From: a virus
Lineage: Duplodnaviria; Heunggongvirae; Uroviricota; Caudoviricetes
Length of the DNA: 12,481 nt
IMG/VR virus record: IMGVR_UViG_2617270959_000010
Direction: 5' to 3' (one strand)
This document shows positions 1 to 8,531 of the stretch, piece after piece. The notes under the pieces were generated by a model. The model made no database searches, had not been told where the DNA came from, and worked only from the letters and a program-made list of their open reading frames with translations. The position numbers were made by a program, and so were the translations under genes. Numbering within the stretch: position 1 is the stretch's first letter; each line of letters begins with the position of its first letter.

Positions 1-270
1 ATGAAAGAGCTTGAGTTAAAGAAACCGATTACCGCTCATGGCGAGACACTCTCCGTACTGGAGTTTGATGAGCCCACCGGGAAAGATGTCCGCGAGCTGG
101 GGTATCCCTACCAGATGAATCAGGATGAGTCCGTCAGACTTCTGGCGCATGTGGTATCGAAATACATTGTGCGGCTGGCGAAAGTGCCGCAAAACTCTGT
201 CGACCAGATGTCTCCGGCAGACCTGAATGCAGCGGCGTGGCTTGTGGCTGGTTTTTTCCTCCAGGCCTGA
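1..270 (+). CDS. Phage tail assembly chaperone (lambda gpG-like / Mu gp41-like), 0-frame product; may be 5'-truncated by the window edge
   Basis: 89-aa ORF immediately upstream of and overlapping-coupled to the tape-measure gene; slippery heptamer 4 codons before its stop; position typical of chaperone genes. Upstream context not visible. Confidence 0.55.
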   Translation: MKELELKKPITAHGETLSVLEFDEPTGKDVRELGYPYQMNQDESVRLLAHVVSKYIVRLAKVPQNSVDQMSPADLNAAAWLVAGFFLQA

Positions 271-419
271 CGGCTGAATACCTCACTGATCGCTTCTTTG
301 ACTGCGCCAGCTACTGGCGCATTAATCCCTTCGAATTGCTGAATATGCCGATCAGTGAAATTCCCTTGCTGGTCAGTCAGGCAAACAGGATAGAGCAGGA
401 GAAACGCACACATGGCTGA
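1..419 (+). CDS. Tail assembly chaperone -1 frameshift fusion product (gpGT-like), about 139 aa if the slip occurs at 252-258
   Basis: Overlapping ORFs 1..270 (frame 1) and 237..419 (frame 3) in the -1 relationship; the frame-3 ORF ends at 419, overlapping the tape-measure ATG at 412. This is the conserved arrangement upstream of tape-measure genes in tailed phages. Confidence 0.45.
252..258 (+). other. Candidate programmed -1 ribosomal frameshift site (slippery heptamer T_TTT_TTC)
   Basis: Frame-1 codons GGT TTT TTC at 250-258 give an X_XXY_YYZ heptamer at 252-258; the -1 frame (frame 3) stays open from 258 to the TGA at 417-419. Confidence 0.5.
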
Positions 420-2253
420 ATTTGAGCTTAAGGCGTTGATCACCGGTGTCGACAGGCTTTCTCCCGCGCTGTCGAAAATGCAAAAGAAAATCCGGGGATT
501 TAAACGCCAGGCGGAAGAAGCGTCACAGGGTGGGCTGGCGCTTGGTGGCGGACTGGCAGCGGGTCTGACGCTTTCCCTGAAATCTTATGCCGATCAGGAA
601 AACGCCGCCACCGGGCTGAAAGTCGCCATGATGGATGCGAATGGCGAGGTTGGAAAGAGCTTTCAGGACATCAATAAACTGGCTATTGGCCTGGGTAACC
701 AGCTACCCGGTACAACGGCTGATTTCCAGAACATGATGCAGATGCTGGTGCGTCAGGGGATCCCGGCAGAAAACATTCTGGGTGGTGTGGGTAAAGCGAC
801 AGCTTATCTTGCGGTACAACTGAAAAAAACACCGGAAGCGGCTGCTGAGTTTGCTGCAAAGATGCAGGATGCTACCGGAACGGCGTCAGAAGACATGATG
901 GGGCTGTTCGACACTATCCAGAAGGCGTTTTATCTGGGCGTTGACGATACCAACATGTTGTCCTTCTTCACTAAAACCAGTTCTGTTCTGAAGATGGTGA
1001 ACAAGGACGGTCTTCAGGCTGCACAGAGCCTTGCCCCCATCAGCGTCATGATGGATCAGATGGGGATGAACGGGGAGTCGGCAGGTAATGCCCTGCGAAA
1101 AGTTATCCAGTCCGGATTAAGCGTTAAGAAAATCAGGGACGTCAATAAAGTCATGGCCCGCCAGAAACTCGGGGTACAGCTCGATTTTACTGACGGCAAA
1201 GGAAGTTTTGGCGGTCTTGATAACATGTTCAGGCAACTGGCAAAGCTGCGAAAACTGACCGACGTTAAGCGAACAGGTGTACTTAAGGCAATATTTGGTG
1301 ATGATGCCGAAACCCTTCAGGTGGTCAATGCACTAATCGATAAAGGAAAGGATGGCTACGATCAGATCCAGCAGAAGATGAATAAACAGGCCAGCCTGAA
1401 TAAACGTGTTCAGGCCCAGCTTGGTACGCTGTCCAACCTGTGGGAGGCAATGACGGGGACCGCAACTAACGGCCTTGCGGCTATTGGCGGCGCATTTTCT
1501 GGTGACGCCAAAAATATCACGCAATGGCTGGGGGAGTTAGGGGAAAAATTCACGAAGTTTGCGGATGAAAATCCCCGGGTTATTCGCGGCGTCGTCGGGC
1601 TTGCTGCCGGTCTTGCGATTCTGAAACTGGGATTGATGGGCGTTGGCGGGGCCATCAGTATTGTCAGCAGGATCATGTCGATGACGCCGATTGGAATGAT
1701 TGCGACGGCGATAGCCCTGGCTGCGGGATTAATTATCACTAACTGGGATGTTGTCGGACCTTATTTCAAGAAGCTCTGGGAAACCATTGGTCCTTATTTT
1801 GAGGCTGGCTGGGAACTTCTGAAGAAGGTTTTTGCCTGGTCGCCGCTGGGGATGGTAATCAATAACTGGGGACCGGTTGTTAAGTGGTTTCAGGATATGT
1901 GGGACAAGCTGAAGCCGATTATTGAATGGTTTACCGACAGTTCCGGTGACACGGTCGATGCCATTAACTCTGCGCAGTGGGGCGCGGGTGCTTATGATGC
2001 TTATGGGACGGGATTCCCGGCGCGGGGATACACACCTTATCCGGCGATGGATCCGGCTCAGGCAAACAACGCCTCCGATGCCACAGGCCCGAATCCCTTC
2101 ATGATTAACAAAGCTTCTGCGCCAAAAGTTGACGGTGAGATCAAGGTCTCTTTTGTGAATTCGCCTCCGGGTATGCGGGTTATGGAAACGCGATCCAGCG
2201 GTATCGACGTGAATCACGACGTTGGCTACACCCGATTTGGTATGGGGGGCTGA
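412..2253 (+). CDS. Tail tape measure protein
   Basis: 613-aa ORF; N-terminal region predicted helical (A/L/K/Q-rich), central Gly/Ala-rich hydrophobic segment, C-terminal Trp-rich repeats (WDVVGPYFKKLWETIGPYFEAGWELLKK...WGPVVKWFQDMWDKL); located between chaperone and baseplate genes. Confidence 0.8.
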   Translation: MAEFELKALITGVDRLSPALSKMQKKIRGFKRQAEEASQGGLALGGGLAAGLTLSLKSYADQENAATGLKVAMMDANGEVGKSFQDINKLAIGLGNQLPGTTADFQNMMQMLVRQGIPAENILGGVGKATAYLAVQLKKTPEAAAEFAAKMQDATGTASEDMMGLFDTIQKAFYLGVDDTNMLSFFTKTSSVLKMVNKDGLQAAQSLAPISVMMDQMGMNGESAGNALRKVIQSGLSVKKIRDVNKVMARQKLGVQLDFTDGKGSFGGLDNMFRQLAKLRKLTDVKRTGVLKAIFGDDAETLQVVNALIDKGKDGYDQIQQKMNKQASLNKRVQAQLGTLSNLWEAMTGTATNGLAAIGGAFSGDAKNITQWLGELGEKFTKFADENPRVIRGVVGLAAGLAILKLGLMGVGGAISIVSRIMSMTPIGMIATAIALAAGLIITNWDVVGPYFKKLWETIGPYFEAGWELLKKVFAWSPLGMVINNWGPVVKWFQDMWDKLKPIIEWFTDSSGDTVDAINSAQWGAGAYDAYGTGFPARGYTPYPAMDPAQANNASDATGPNPFMINKASAPKVDGEIKVSFVNSPPGMRVMETRSSGIDVNHDVGYTRFGMGG

Positions 2254-2334
2254 TACCCCGCTTAAACACGGGTTTTGTCGTTTAGCAGGTTCTTGGTAGG
2301 ATTAGTCCGATACTTTAATGATGGGAATAGGGAT

Positions 2335-3012
2335 ATGAAAGTCTTAACAATTTATTCAGTTGTCGGCATGGCTCTTTTACTCGGGGGATGTACCTCTCCG
2401 AAGTACAATTATTTACCAAAAACAGAAAATTATAGTGAACCTCCTGTAGGAAGCATTAATACAGCTTATGTCGGTGATTCAATGATTAAGCAGGGGGTGT
2501 CACAGAGGTTTGAAGGTCTGAAGGTTAATGCTCCTGCGAGAATTTCCTGGGCGTATACGATCACTCCGGGGATGCTGAAAAAGGTTGGTGAGGATAACAA
2601 GGCTGATTATTACTTTCTCACAAACGGTGCTGATTCAGCCAATGTGGAAAAGGCAGCCCTTGCCGATATGTGGCAGGGCATCATGGTAGAAAAGAAAAAG
2701 AATGCCTTATGTGTAATAACAGTTTTCGGTGTTACCAACTGTGAAACTAACATGCCTATCGAAAAGGTTACTCTGAATATCAGTGGTGATTCATCTTTCC
2801 AGCAAGCTCTGCTTTACAACGGAAGGGTCGGAAACAAAATCAACATTGGATATCGTGAATTTTCATCGAATACAGCACGCCCGGCCTTCAACAACGATGT
2901 TGAGTATGATCTCGCGGAGTCTAAAACAATTGGCTATAAAGGGGCTAAATTCGAAGTACTTGATGCGAGTAACCAAAGCATAAGGTATCGGGTAATAAGT
3001 AACTTTAGATAA
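2335..3012 (+). CDS. Predicted outer-membrane lipoprotein of unknown function (moron); start revised to ATG 2335
   Basis: ORF track starts at a TTG (2275), but the ATG at 2335 gives a typical signal peptide MKVLTIYSVVGMALLLGG-C with lipobox LGGC and Thr at +2; GGGA 8 nt upstream; visibly AT-richer than flanking tail genes; followed by a strong intrinsic terminator. Confidence 0.7.
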   Translation: MKVLTIYSVVGMALLLGGCTSPKYNYLPKTENYSEPPVGSINTAYVGDSMIKQGVSQRFEGLKVNAPARISWAYTITPGMLKKVGEDNKADYYFLTNGADSANVEKAALADMWQGIMVEKKKNALCVITVFGVTNCETNMPIEKVTLNISGDSSFQQALLYNGRVGNKINIGYREFSSNTARPAFNNDVEYDLAESKTIGYKGAKFEVLDASNQSIRYRVISNFR

Positions 3013-3026
3013 GCGATAATTTAATG

Positions 3027-3050
3027 AAACCCGCTTCGGCGGGTTTTTTT
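3027..3050 (+). terminator. Rho-independent terminator after the lipoprotein gene
   Basis: AAACCCGC-TTCG-GCGGGTTT hairpin followed by T7 tract (3044-3050), 15 nt after the lipoprotein stop. Confidence 0.75.
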
Positions 3051-3065
3051 ATATCCGGAGTTTAT

Positions 3066-4295
3066 ATGACGTGGAAAGACAGACTTCAGGACGCGTCATT
3101 TCGCGGCGTGCCGTTTAAGGTTGAAGAAGAAAGTGCGGGAACCGGTCGTCGTGTGGAAACGCACGAATACCCGAACCGCGACAAACCCTATACCGAAGAC
3201 CTGGGGAAAATCACTTTCCGCCCGTCCATCACGGCTTATGTGGTGGGAGATGACTGCTTTGACCAGCGCGATCGCCTGATTGACGCGCTGAATAAACCCG
3301 GTCCCGGCACGCTTGTCCATCCGACTTACGGTGAGCTGAAAGTCTGTGTTGACGGAGAAGTTCGGGTCAGCACATCGAAGAGTGAAGGGCGTATTGTCCG
3401 CTTTGACCTGAAGTTTGTCGAAGCAGGAGAACTCTCTTACCCCACATCAGGTGCGGCGACGGCGCAGACGCTGATGTCATCCTGTTCTGCACTGGATGAC
3501 TGCATCAGTGACAGCTTCAGCGGTTTCAGTATCGATGGTGTGGCGGATTTCGTGCAGAACGACGTTATCGGTAATGCCAGCATAATGCTGGGGTATGTTT
3601 CTGATGCGATGAAAGTGGTGGATTCTGCCGTATCGGATGCCGCCAGGCTGTTGCAGGGGGATATCTCGGTACTTCTGCCGCCGCCATCGTCAGGCAAAAA
3701 TTTCGTTGAGCAGGTGCAGAAAATGTGGCGTACCGGGAAACGCCTTTATGGTAACGCCAGCGACCTGGTCACCATGATCAAAACGCTTTCCGGTGTCAGC
3801 CTCGGCAGCGATCTGCAACCGCGCGGCGTCTGGAAAACGGATAGTAAAACCACCGCCACGGCGACGCAGCAGAGTAACGTGGTTGCCAGCACCCTTCGTA
3901 CGACCGCAATCAGCGAAGCGGCGTATGCCGTCACCCGATTGCCTGCGCCAACAACTTCCGCGGTGATGCAGAATGCCGCAGTGGAGCAGGCAACAACACC
4001 TGCGCAGAGCACTGGCTGGCCTTCCGTCACGCATCCGGCACTGAACAATGCACCGGCGGTGAAAAACACGGTTGACCTGCCGACGTGGGAAGAACTGACT
4101 GACATTCGCGACACACTGAATACGGCAATTGATAAGGAGTTGTCCCGTACAACCAGTGATGCGCTGTTTCTGGCGCTGCGCTGGGTGAAAGCAGATCTGA
4201 ATGCGGATATCAACACGCGCCTTGAACAGTCTGCACGGATCATTCAGCGCACACCGGATGAGGTTTTACCCGCGCTGGTGCTGGCGGCGACCTGA
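3066..4295 (+). CDS. DNA circularization protein N (Mu gp43-like); start revised to ATG 3066
   Basis: N-terminus MTWKDRLQDASFRGVPFKVEEE...GRRVETHEYPNRDKPYTEDLG matches my recollection of the conserved Mu N N-terminal domain; GGAG 5 nt upstream of ATG 3066; the ORF-track start at 3024 would place the terminator hairpin inside the CDS. Confidence 0.8.
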   Translation: MTWKDRLQDASFRGVPFKVEEESAGTGRRVETHEYPNRDKPYTEDLGKITFRPSITAYVVGDDCFDQRDRLIDALNKPGPGTLVHPTYGELKVCVDGEVRVSTSKSEGRIVRFDLKFVEAGELSYPTSGAATAQTLMSSCSALDDCISDSFSGFSIDGVADFVQNDVIGNASIMLGYVSDAMKVVDSAVSDAARLLQGDISVLLPPPSSGKNFVEQVQKMWRTGKRLYGNASDLVTMIKTLSGVSLGSDLQPRGVWKTDSKTTATATQQSNVVASTLRTTAISEAAYAVTRLPAPTTSAVMQNAAVEQATTPAQSTGWPSVTHPALNNAPAVKNTVDLPTWEELTDIRDTLNTAIDKELSRTTSDALFLALRWVKADLNADINTRLEQSARIIQRTPDEVLPALVLAAT

Positions 4296-4330
4296 TTTGA
4301 TAACGCGGCGCGTGACGCGGACATTATCCG

Positions 4331-4347
4331 GCGTAATGCCATTACGC
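4331..4347. promoter_or_regulatory. 17-bp palindrome (GCGTAATG-C-CATTACGC) in the 95-bp gap upstream of the hub-like gene; candidate regulator-binding site or late promoter element
   Basis: Perfect 8-bp inverted arms with 1-nt spacer, read directly; lies in the only sizeable intergenic gap within the tail operon. Confidence 0.3.
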
Positions 4348-4390
4348 ATCACGGCTTTGTGCCGGTGATCCCTCTGAAGGTGCCAGTGCA

Positions 4391-4912
4391 ATGAACGATA
4401 ACGTCACGCTACGGGTAAATGGCCGGGAGTGGAATGGCTGGACATCGGTGCGCATCGGTGCCGGTATTGAACGGCTGGCGCGGGATTTCAGCGTGGAGAT
4501 CCCCCGCCAGTGGCCGGGAGATGAGGGTATCACCACGCTTCAGCCGCGCATTAAAAATGGTTCAAAAGTGGAAGTGCTGATTGGTGATGAGCTGGTGATC
4601 ACCGGCTGGGTGGAGGCGACCCCCGTTCGTTACGATTCCCGTTCGGTCAGCACCGGTATTGCCGGACGTAGTCTGACTGCTGACCTGATTGACTGTGCAG
4701 CCGAACCGACACAGTTTAACGGACGATCGCTGGTACAGATTGCGCAGGCGCTTGCTGCGCCTTTCGGCATTGAGGTGGTGAACAGCGGTGCGCCGTCGGG
4801 TGTTATTCCTGATGTCCAGCCTGATCACGGTGAAACGGTGATCGAGGTGATTAACAAAATACTCGGTCAGCAGCAGGCGCTGGCTTATGACGACCCGCAC
4901 GGCAGTCCGTGA
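4391..4912 (+). CDS. Baseplate hub-like protein (Mu P/gp44, P2 gpD-like), N-terminal-type domain only; 173 aa, much shorter than typical hubs
   Basis: N-terminus MNDNVTLRVNGREWNGWTSVRIGAGIERLARDFSV...IAGRSLTADLIDCAA resembles what I recall of gpD/gp44 hub N-terminal domains; position after the gp43-like gene. Confidence 0.5.
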   Translation: MNDNVTLRVNGREWNGWTSVRIGAGIERLARDFSVEIPRQWPGDEGITTLQPRIKNGSKVEVLIGDELVITGWVEATPVRYDSRSVSTGIAGRSLTADLIDCAAEPTQFNGRSLVQIAQALAAPFGIEVVNSGAPSGVIPDVQPDHGETVIEVINKILGQQQALAYDDPHGSP

Positions 4913-5145
4913 CGCTGACCCGGGCGGGTATCGTGGTGGACGGCGGCGGGAAAACGCTCACGTTTCGCAATGCGCCCAGAGCACGTTTTGAAATGGACCT
5001 GGAAGTGACCGGACAGGTGAAAGACCTGTGCGACTCCGGCGGCACCACCATGTCAGCGATGCGGCTTGCCTATAACGGGCATCGTCACAGAGAGAACGGT
5101 CAGGGCAGTAACACCGACAAACCTGATAAAGCGATGGAGGCATGA
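4909..5145 (+). CDS. Small ORF (78 aa) with GTG start overlapping the upstream stop (GTGA) in the -1 frame; possible hub/spike remnant or small baseplate protein
   Basis: GTG 4909 overlaps TGA 4910-4912; ends ATGA-coupled to the GP46-like gene. Together with 4391..4912 it occupies only about 0.75 kb where Mu-type modules usually carry hub plus spike genes. Confidence 0.35.
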   Translation: MTLTRAGIVVDGGGKTLTFRNAPRARFEMDLEVTGQVKDLCDSGGTTMSAMRLAYNGHRHRENGQGSNTDKPDKAMEA

Positions 5146-5570
5146 TGGAACTGTGGCTGACGGTGAACGGTAAACGCACCTGTGCCAGCGCACCGCTGGA
5201 GCCGCTGACCCGCGCTGTGGTGATTTCCCTGTTCACCTGGCGGCGGGCGGAGCCTGATGACAACGCCGACGTCCCGATGGGATGGTGGGGGGATACCTGG
5301 CCTGCGGTACAGAATGACCGTTACGGCTCCCGACTGTGGCTGCTTCAGCGCAGCAAACTGACCAATCAGCTGGTGCAGACAGTAAGGGGGTATATCCGCG
5401 AATGCCTGCAATGGATGATTGATGACGGCGTGGTGTCCCGTATTGATCTGGATATCCGCCGCACCGGGATTAATGAACTGGGTAACAGTATCACTCTCTG
5501 GCGTCGTGACGGACCGGTAATGATTTCTTTTGATGATCTGTGGAGTGCGATAACGCATGGCGGACAGTGA
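5142..5570 (+). CDS. Baseplate protein, phage GP46 family (Mu gp46-like)
   Basis: 142-aa ORF, ATGA-coupled to the upstream gene and overlapping the downstream Baseplate-J-like gene; size and position match Mu gp46. Confidence 0.7.
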   Translation: MMELWLTVNGKRTCASAPLEPLTRAVVISLFTWRRAEPDDNADVPMGWWGDTWPAVQNDRYGSRLWLLQRSKLTNQLVQTVRGYIRECLQWMIDDGVVSRIDLDIRRTGINELGNSITLWRRDGPVMISFDDLWSAITHGGQ

Positions 5571-6615
5571 ATTTCAGCGCCCGACGCTGGCAGAAAATAT
5601 CAGTATGCTCCGTAACGATTTATTCGCCAGGCTGGACGTCAGCGACACGCTCCGGCGCATGGATGAAGACGTGCGGGCAAAGGTGTATGCGGCGGCGCTG
5701 CATACGGTTTACGGGTACATCGATTATCTGGCAATGAACATGCTGCCTGACCTGTGCGATGAGTCCTGGCTGGCGCGACATGCTGCGATGAAACGGTGTC
5801 CGCGCAAGGGGGCCACGACTGCCAGCGGGTATATGCGCTGGGAAGGTGTCAGCGATGGCCTGAAGGTGACCGCCGGGAGCGTGATTCAGCGCGATGACCT
5901 GGTTCAGTACACGGCAACTGCCGATGCAACCAGCTCCGGTGGTGTCCTGCGCGTGCCGATCGCCTGCTCAAGTGCAGGCGCGGTCGGTAACGCTGACGAC
6001 GGTACGTCATTAATCCTGGTCACGCCGGTGAATGGTCTGCCGTCTTCCGGCGTGGCAGATACCCTGACAGGTGGATTTGATACTGAAGAGCTGGAAACGT
6101 GGCGCACCCGCGTCATTGAGCGGTATTACTGGACGCCTCAGGGCGGGGCTGACGGGGACTATGTCGTCTGGGCTAAAGAAGTGCCCGGCATTACCCGCGC
6201 ATGGACATACCGTCACTGGATGGGAACGGGAACTGTCGGTGTGATGATTGCCAGCAGTGACCTGATTAATCCCATTCCGGAAGAATCAACGGAAACGGCG
6301 GCAAGACAACATATCGAGCCACTGGCCCCGGTGGCAGGCTCTGATTTGTATGTGTTCAGGCCGGTGGCACATACGGTGGATTTTCATATCCGCGTGACGC
6401 CGGACACACCGGAAATACGGGCTGCCATCACCGCGGAGTTGCGTTCGTTCCTGCTGCGTGATGGTTATCCGCAGGGAGAACTGAAGGTATCGCGTATCAG
6501 TGAGGCGATTTCCGGTGCGAACGGGGAATACAGCCATCAGTTGCTTGCACCGGCAGACAATATCTCCATTGCAAAAAATGAACTGGCGGTTCTGGGGACG
6601 ATTTCATGGACGTGA
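5557..6615 (+). CDS. Baseplate J-like protein (Mu gp47 / P2 gpJ-like wedge protein)
   Basis: 352-aa ORF in the canonical position between the GP46-like and DUF2313-like genes; overlapping starts and stops indicate translational coupling. Confidence 0.8.
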
Positions 6616-7190
6616 CAAACGATGATTACATCCGTCTGTTGTCGGCACTGTTGCCCCCCGGTCCGGCGTGGTCAGCCAGCGATCCGGCGATTGCCGGTGC
6701 GGCACCGTCATTAACCCGTGTTCATCAGCGTGCGGATGCCCTGATGCGGGAGCTGGATCCGCGCACCACCACTGAACTGATAAACCGCTGGGAGCGTCTG
6801 TGCGGTCTGCCGGATGAATGTATTCCCGCAGGGACAAAGACCCTTCGTCAGCGTCAGCAACGGCTGGATGCGAAGGTTAACCTGGCGGGCAGCATCAACG
6901 AGAATTTTTATCTTGCACAGCTTGCTGCCCTGGGCAGACCAGATGCCAACATCACGCGATACGACAAAAGCACGTTCACCTGCTCATCGGCCTGTACTGA
7001 CGCGGTGAATGCGCCGGAATGGCGGTATTACTGGCAGGTCAACATGCCAGCTGCCACCAACACCACCTGGATGACATGTGGCGATCCCTGTGATTCCGCA
7101 CTGCGTATCTGGGGCGACACCGTTGTCGAGTGTGTGCTTAACAAACTCTGCCCGTCGCATACCTACGTAATTTTTAAATATCCGGAGTAA
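6606..7190 (+). CDS. Baseplate/tail protein, Mu gp48 / P2 gpI-like (DUF2313, YmfQ-like)
   Basis: 194-aa ORF; N-terminus with ...[12 protein letters not shown]... recalls YmfQ/gp48 family proteins; lies immediately upstream of the tail fibre gene. Confidence 0.8.
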
Positions 7191-7193
7191 TCC

Positions 7194-8126
7194 ATGCATC
7201 GTATAGACACGAAAACCGCGCAGAAGGATAAGTTCGGCGCGGGTAAGAACGGTTTTACCCGTGGTAACCCCCAGACCGGCACACCTGCCACCGATCTGGA
7301 TGATGACTACTTTGACATGTTGCAGGAAGAACTTTGTAGCGTGGTGGAGGCCTCCGGTGCCAGCCTGGAGAAGGAGCGGCACGACCAGTTGCTTACCGCG
7401 CTTCGTGCGCTGCTGTTAAGCCGCAAGAATCCGTTTGGTGATATCAAATCGGATGGCACGGTGAAAACGGCTCTCGAAAACCTTGGTTTGGGAGATGGCT
7501 CGGGGCGTTACAGCAAAACTGTCGTTTTTTCATCGTCGGGTTCATATACGTGGCCAGCTGACGTAAAACGAATTGACGTTATTCTGACTGCGGGGGGCGG
7601 CGGTGGCGGTGGATGTAACGCGGAGAACGCAAATCAGACATTTTCAGGGGCTGGCGGAGGAGCCGGAGGTACTGTTTTTGCCACTATTTATGCGACAGAC
7701 AACGATGCCGGGCCAGGGACCTATACAGTGACAATTGGTAGCGGTGGTAGTGGTGCCAATGGGCCAGGGTCTGGAAATAATGGCGGTCATAGTTCGTTCA
7801 TGACATTAACTGCGCTCGGCGGCCAGGGTGGGCAATGGGGCGGCGCTACAAATACCGCTGGCGGGCGCGGTGGCTCAGGCTCTGGCGGTTATAAAACTGA
7901 ACAAGGCGGAGACGGTTCAGACGGACAGGCGGGCCAGGCGCTATTAGTAGGCAATGGGGCATCGAGCTATTGGGGTGGCGGCGGCCGCGCTGGGCAACTG
8001 AGCGGTAATCCTGGAGTTTGCTCTGGCTCCGGCGGCGGGGGTGCATACGATAATAGCTATTCACACACGTCAGGACGTGGCGGGCACGGAGCTAATGGCG
8101 TGCTGGTAATTCGGGAGTACATGTAA
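7194..8126 (+). CDS. Tail fibre protein with a glycine-rich C-terminal domain
   Basis: N-terminal domain [55 protein letters not shown] typical of side-tail-fibre N-termini; residues about 130-300 are extremely Gly-rich ([32 protein letters not shown]...); GGAG 6 nt upstream of ATG; followed by a Tfa gene. Confidence 0.75.
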
Positions 8127-8531
8127 ATGAATGATATCTATGCAGTTGTTGATAATAACGTTGTTATTAATGTCATTATCTGGGACGGAATTTCTGAATG
8201 GAAACCAGAGGCTGGTAATTTAGTTCCGTTAAACGGCGATGCTGGCATCGGTTGGTCATATTCAGACGGAGTATTTACCGCGCCACCTCCCCCAGAACGC
8301 TCTCACAACGCGTTAGTTGCGGAGGCTGAGCTGCAGAAATCAGCACTATTGACCGTAGCAAATAACGCAATAGCACCGCTGCAGGATGCCGTTGATTTGG
8401 AAATGGTGACAGACGATGAACAGGCGTTACTGCTGGCGTGGAAAAAATACAGGGTACTGCTGAACCGTGTTGATACCTCAGCGGCACCCGAAATAGAGTG
8501 GCCTACGCAACCGGGGGAGCGGGCCAGTTGA
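8127..8531 (+). CDS. Tail fibre assembly protein (Tfa)
   Basis: C-terminus ...[48 protein letters not shown] closely matches the conserved lambda-Tfa C-terminal motif as I recall it; N-terminal third is AT-rich and unrelated. Confidence 0.8.

Follow-up and report, generated by a model that had tools for sequence, protein, structure and literature searches.

Positions 4296-5145 of the prophage window analysed here, the window being the whole stretch of 12,481 nucleotides that makes up bases 39-12519 of draft contig JNQC01000011.1 (GCA_000704265.1), are almost certainly the scar of lesions, where the open reading frames (ORFs) are pseudogenes and a compact module is excluded. The scar in the hub and spike genes goes back to the loss of DNA between two GGCAG pentamers of a Mu-type tail module like that of SfV, and the best explanation of the locus as a whole, a scar within a patch that entered a gtr prophage by recombination, is held with good though lesser confidence. 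The type of feature is already known, prophage pseudogenes that result from deletion being a matter of routine prophage decay.

The window encodes a Mu-type contractile tail, with genes for the tail-assembly chaperone and tape measure first, then gp43-like, hub, spike, GP46, Baseplate_J, gp48, glycine-rich fibre and fibre assembly, followed on the minus strand by a gtrC-type gene, gtrB and gtrA, and then by chromosomal ybhB. The baseplate wedge genes GP46, gp47/J and gp48 (5145-7190, plus strand; Pfam GP46, Baseplate_J and Phage_Mu_Gp48) are intact. The Mu-type tail module is thus followed by gtrC-gtrB-gtrA beside an attachment site, and the lambda att core GCTTTTTTATACTAA is present as an exact copy at 11900-11914, between gtrA and ybhB. 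Relatives have the prophage inserted between ybhB and ybhC, with an integrase/excisionase pair. No tRNA gene is found within the window. Because of its gene order and the approximately 97% DNA identity of its tail module, the locus is, judged by sequence, a member of the SfV-like group of serotype-converting phages.

Several features of the flanking genes can be described alongside the tail module. At the left end of the window, an 89-aa tail-assembly chaperone ORF (1-270) is overlapped in another frame by a 60-aa ORF (237-419), and such a pair before the tape-measure gene is the usual layout of chaperones made by programmed frameshifting. In the fibre region (7194-8799), a 310-aa fibre ORF (7194-8126) with a glycine-rich domain is intact, whereas for the identical sequence in complete genomes PGAP annotates two proteins, a partial 'StfP' and one called 'glycine-rich domain'. 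The fibre-assembly gene (8127-8531) is followed in the complete genomes by an annotated fragment of a second assembly gene, inverted and decayed, which may be left over from an alternative or invertible fibre cassette. The gtr cargo (8815-11556, minus strand) has a G+C content of 39%, compared with about 57% in the tail genes. Its 488-aa gtrC-type protein has no match in Pfam, and the PHROGs that it matches are all of unknown function; by megablast the gtrC-type region does not match SfV gtrV, and alignment to SfV covers just part of gtrB/gtrA (about 78% identity), so the O-antigen modification is probably a different one. In the complete genome of E. coli EcPF15 (NZ_CP054227.1), the att-lambda prophage is reduced to int, xis, fragments of early genes, the fibre end and gtrABC, and this copy is a bona fide cryptic remnant that has kept its gtr cargo.

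The deletion can be read directly from the alignment to SfV. Window positions 3021-4905 align without gaps to positions 3501-5385 of the SfV locus, and positions 4901-7495 align without gaps to 6254-8848 (BLAST), with DNA identity of about 97% on either side. Between the two alignments the offset shifts by 873, with an overlap of 5 bp (GGCAG, 4901-4905), from which it follows that a single deletion of 873 bp separates the window from SfV. The pentamer is present at both breakpoints in intact relatives, and identical breakpoints are obtained against the intact ybhB-side prophages of strains 300033 and M00057. Deletion at so short a repeat would be consistent with replication slippage or illegitimate recombination. 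The missing DNA encodes hub residues 172-359 together with spike residues 1-102. A reading made from the sequence alone (below, the sequence-only reading) had proposed a frameshift plus a deletion of about 1 kb fusing the hub and spike remnants; the fusion by internal deletion stands, but the deletion is 873 bp long and there is no separate frameshift, the change of frame between the two ORFs being due to the different frames that the hub and spike genes occupy.

The hub remnant (4391-4912, plus strand) is a 173-aa ORF made up of codons 1-171 of a 359-codon gp44-type hub gene, followed by Ser-Pro-stop. Alignment to SfV identifies this ending as out-of-frame spike DNA, and after the deletion the hub frame thus reads two spike-derived codons before it terminates. 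The ORF contains the Pfam domains GpP-like_1st (7.8e-23) and Gp44-like_2nd (3.8e-24), the latter spanning profile positions 1-78 of 84, and by these matches its homology to gp44-type hubs is far beyond chance. The third and fourth hub domains are absent from the ORF in a Pfam search. In the intact SfV orf16, GpP_4th is found at hub residues 259-340 (1.7e-18), and NMB1110_3rd gives a weak match at 205-263 that is below the Pfam cutoff. The intact protein aligns over residues 1-348 to Mu gp44 (1WRU, 9KI1; E 1e-50) and also to MuSo2 gp44 (3CDD). The proposal that the first ORF is the N-terminal portion of a gpD/gp44-type hub is therefore borne out, both by the restriction of its Pfam matches to domains 1 and 2 and by its alignment to SfV orf16.

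The spike remnant (4909-5145, plus strand) is a 78-aa ORF with a GTG start and comprises codons 105-182 of a 182-codon gp45-type spike gene. It is identical to SfV orf17 residues 105-182 at 74 of 78 positions, and its start is the codon for Val105 of orf17; the C-terminus of the spike survives as an ORF because this internal valine codon is GTG. The spike frame is open from 4891, the GTG at 4909 is its first start codon, and no Shine-Dalgarno sequence is visible 5' of it. Searched alone, the 78-aa ORF has no match in Pfam, in the PDB (E<=10) or in PHROGs, and its identification as a piece of the spike therefore comes from the alignment to SfV orf17. The likeness of its C-terminal motif to the tip of gpV/gp45-type spikes, which the earlier reading had offered, likewise finds no counterpart in that PDB search with the 78 aa alone. 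The N-terminal domain Phage_Mu_Gp45 (PF06890) is missing from the ORF in the Pfam search; in the intact SfV orf17 it covers residues 17-84, all of which are deleted in the window, and residues 5-116 of the intact protein align to Mu gp45 (9KI1; E 3e-14). The description of two small ORFs of 173 and 78 aa at 4391-4912 and 4909-5145 is accurate, as is that of the second as starting at a GTG which overlaps the first as GTGA in the -1 frame (4909 as against a stop ending at 4912), and the gp43-like stop (4295) and the GP46 start (5145) are indeed about 0.85 kb apart.

A third lesion, which the earlier note had not mentioned, is a nonsense codon in the gp43-like gene. This gene (SfV orf15; 3066-4295, plus strand) encodes a tube-initiator/DNA-circulation protein (Pfam DNA_circ_N, 6.1e-34) and ends early at a TGA at 4293-4295, where SfV and both intact ybhB-side prophages have TGG, so that LAAT*FDN in the window corresponds to LAATWFDN in SfV. 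Positions 4296-4393, which had been taken as intergenic, are in fact the orphaned 3' end of the gene on the plus strand, with its last 32 codons in frame and the original stop in an ATGA overlap with the hub start; their translation, FDNAARDADIIRRNAITHHGFVPVIPLKVPVQ*, is the C-terminus of SfV orf15 with one substitution. The TGG>TGA change, about 600 bp upstream of the junction, thus shortens the gp43-like protein by 32 residues and uncouples the gene from the hub start.

The likely consequence for the tail can be gauged from phage Mu, where gp43 is a hexameric tube initiator, the C-terminus of gp44 has been shown by cryo-EM to contact the spike's N-terminus and the tape measure's C-terminus at the baseplate centre, and the C-terminal hub domains complete a trimeric, pseudo-hexameric hub and bind both spike and tape measure (PMC11915804). 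With inactivating lesions in virion-assembly genes, namely the gp43-like nonsense codon and the hub/spike deletion, a prophage bearing this allele is predicted to be unable to nucleate a baseplate or build a tail, because the deletion removes the hub-spike interface on both sides. The related phages retain the complete genes. In a megablast search against phage genomes, 12 records were found at 97-98% identity (SfV, SfI, SfII, SfIV and relatives), each of which aligns in two pieces over a span 872-873 bp longer than the query, and every one of these records carries full 359-aa hub and 182-aa spike genes; the short form occurs in 0 of the 12. Among them is SfI, whose record has the full-length hub/spike region and which is inducible, forms plaques and has a contractile tail (PMC3636060).

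The same allele is found in bacterial chromosomes as part of a different prophage. Among 5426 complete E. coli genomes surveyed with window positions 4600-5200 as the query, 1095 gave a match; about 1090 of these have split, intact-type matches, and the contiguous junction is present in only 4 of the 5426 records, which represent three genomes (300033, 300444 and CB209, the last deposited twice). In all three, the junction lies in a decayed remnant beside intS and tRNA-Arg (argW), the same chromosomal site as that of CPS-53/KpLE1 in K-12. The argW remnant carries an acyltransferase as cargo; its head genes are gone, and its sheath gene and gp48 are interrupted by stop codons. PGAP labels its copies of the three genes 'internal stop', 'incomplete' and 'frameshifted', and the gp43-like protein of the window is identical to the allele flagged there as 'internal stop'. 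Public assemblies have the exact 78-aa product in 105 indexed blocks, and of the eight contexts listed for it (24 contigs read), seven are the argW remnant. The argW remnant of strain 300033 also has, on the opposite strand between the antiterminator and the lysis genes (positions 4851-8003 of the extracted locus), a gene for a 1050-aa metallophosphoesterase, the CB209 copy of which is truncated by IS1; this gene may be an accessory or defence-type cargo gene.

These data bear on three other ways of reading the scar. The overlap of the two ORFs by 4 bases in different frames is what a 1-bp error might look like, and an indel near 4905-4912, introduced by sequencing or assembly and splitting one gene artificially, had been put forward for checking; the discontinuity is 873 bp rather than 1 bp, however, and the same junction recurs in the chromosomes of three complete genomes and in over 20 further contigs, among them many from independent isolates and metagenomes, which leaves this reading with a vanishingly small probability. 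The sequence-only reading had also allowed for a genuinely compact, functional module of two small hub and spike proteins. In favour of such a module, the two ORFs are open and the wedge genes that follow them are intact. Each ORF, however, is an exact piece of a longer gene, matched at about 97% DNA identity up to a defined deletion junction, the domains of the hub-spike interface are missing, all 12 phage records including that of SfI keep the long genes, and in the argW lineage the allele is accompanied by sheath and gp48 stop codons and by loss of the head genes; this alternative is refuted as far as such evidence allows and must be considered extremely improbable. A further reading, in which the remnants have been kept because they are useful, for instance because the hub fragment poisons the baseplates of superinfecting SfV-like phages, could draw on the two complete folding domains of that fragment and on an allele that stays the same, with 0-1 differences over 4.4 kb, across strains from Mozambique and Germany and a metagenome. 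The near-identity covers the whole remnant, however, and since it extends across obvious pseudogenes it reflects recent clonal descent and not selection; moreover, the upstream nonsense codon should lower coupled translation of the hub fragment, and the window copy has a private Thr38Pro change. Retention for use is accordingly very unlikely, and the scar is best read as a set of pseudogenes.

The scar lies in a patch of one prophage type set within another. Positions 3842-5386, which include all three lesions, are of the argW-remnant type, and the surrounding backbone is of the ybhB/att-lambda type. Strain 300033 provides the comparison, as it also has a complete SfV-like prophage between ybhB and ybhC, with gp43-like, hub (1080 bp) and spike (549 bp) genes all intact and a gtr end that is 100% identical to window 7000-12481; in M00057, the same gtr prophage likewise has intact hub and spike genes. 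Over 3842-5386 (1545 bp), the window has 2 mismatches to the argW remnant and 45 to the ybhB-side prophage of 300033, whereas over 5880-7495 (1616 bp) it has 33 mismatches to the argW remnant and 1 to the ybhB-side prophage. The left switch falls within 3360-3841 and the right one within 5387-5879. Positions 1-3062 are of the ybhB type and include a 781-bp insert that is missing from the argW remnant, and the window's gp48 is intact, unlike that of the argW remnant, which has a stop codon. Among the contexts listed for the 78-aa product, JNQC01000011.1 alone has the remnant beside gtr, and no other public contig encodes the 173-aa product exactly. The contig itself ends 38 bp to the left of the window, inside the tail tube gene, and its first base directly follows a site at which the two prophage types of 300033 differ; such an end has the appearance of a repeat fork and suggests a second SfV-like copy in the source genome.

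Two candidate observations on the patch were set aside. A right switch confined to 8 bp (5872-5879) had been considered as proof of a recombinant: none of the complete genomes has fewer than 3 mismatches to positions 5390-6200, but a tighter 161-bp query returns 111 records with at most 1 mismatch, and since these share the combination of alleles at 5739, 5871 and 5880, the combination is a common natural haplotype and the argument was dropped. Sites resembling the argW type in window 1-3400, considered as extra conversion patches, are mostly polymorphisms of the ybhB lineage, as M00057 shows. The bioA-bioB flank does not discriminate between lineages, being 100% identical in dozens of genomes. 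The 781-bp insert, which the window has relative to SfV at 2241-3020, between the tape-measure and gp43-like genes, contains an ORF at 2335-3012 (a longer ORF starts at 2275) for a 225-aa protein with a lipoprotein-like N-terminus (..LLGGC..) that has no Pfam match and matches PHROG 1353 (function unknown). The gene is probably a moron; in the argW remnant its place is taken by a different ORF of 176 aa.

If the contig is correct, the patch would have come by homologous recombination (gene conversion) from a co-resident argW remnant, and a tract of 1.5-2 kb from that remnant would disable the tail and leave gtrABC untouched. In-vivo recombination as a step has an even chance, and the full statement, in which the contig is correct and a dead argW remnant gave the lesion patch to a recent and otherwise intact gtr prophage, falls a little below that. 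The competing explanation is an assembly chimera, in which the isolate contains an argW remnant together with an intact att-lambda gtr prophage and the assembler was mis-threaded across stretches identical between them; the scar would then be real but part of the other prophage, leaving a gtr phage that may be fully functional. Its probability, too, is tentatively placed just short of even, and recombination and mis-threading are regarded as about equally likely. A chimera would account for the restriction of the exact 173-aa product, and of the lesions beside gtr, to one draft contig when the other listed contexts of the 78-aa product are the argW remnant. It is also in keeping with strain 300033, which holds both prophages and whose gtr copy is intact, with switch intervals that coincide with stretches (up to 779 bp and 352 bp) in which the two 300033 copies are identical, and with a contig start that resembles an assembly-graph fork between co-resident copies. 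Against it, the contig crosses a 532-bp identical stretch (6139-6670) and remains on the correct type, and about 45 consecutive sites switch together, so that two coordinated mis-joins would be needed. The patch furthermore differs from the three near-identical argW remnants at 4502, 5264 and 5818, of which 4502 (the site of Thr38Pro) and 5818 are private and 5264 has the ybhB-type allele, and these differences hint at real exchange or at a diverged donor.

The earlier claim of a cryptic prophage that keeps its gtr cargo is thus not established, because the lesion-bearing, argW-type patch may belong to a different prophage, the gtr prophage being intact in 300033 and M00057. The draft contig on its own is no safe ground for calling the gtr prophage defective, since its closest relatives in complete genomes are intact. 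Should transfer of the patch by gene conversion be correct, it would have immobilised the prophage in one step and preserved its O-antigen-modifying cargo, and resident prophage debris would be a source of inactivating alleles that domesticate incoming relatives. The mosaic would then be a clean natural example in which a defective remnant inactivates a co-resident functional prophage and the conversion genes remain intact.

Compared with known systems, the window is closest in layout to the SfV orf15-orf17 region (NC_003444 / U82619; likewise SfI, SfII and SfIV), with which it shares the order tape measure, gp43-like, hub, spike, GP46, gp47, gp48, fibre and gtrC-B-A. In SfV, orf15, the hub and the spike are 447, 359 and 182 aa long, whereas the window lacks 873 bp and has the orf15 nonsense codon; also unlike SfV, it has the 781-bp insert with its lipoprotein-like gene, a different fibre and a different gtrC. 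SfI, SfII, SfIV, SfV and SfX are reported to integrate at tRNA-thrW (PMC3636060), and in contrast to these characterised S. flexneri phages, the SfV-like prophage of the window is at att-lambda. Relative to Mu gp43/gp44/gp45 (1WRU, 9KI1) and MuSo2 gp44 (3CDD), the hub remnant keeps the first two gp44 domains, but unlike Mu, the window is without the C-terminal domains of gp44 and the N-terminal domain of gp45.

The argW remnant has the same junction and the same orf15 nonsense codon as the window, and its gp43-like, 78-aa and GP46 products are identical, but it has the acyltransferase and intS where the window has gtr and ybhB, and its sheath and gp48 stop codons and its loss of head genes are not seen in the window. 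In E. coli, the prophage pool of O157 is reportedly a setting for exchange between co-resident or defective prophages and functional phages, and capture from defective prophages is mediated by Rad52-type recombinases. The window resembles these exchange systems in having a patch of one type inside another, with the switches at high identity; unlike them, its putative patch would inactivate the recipient rather than rescue or diversify it.
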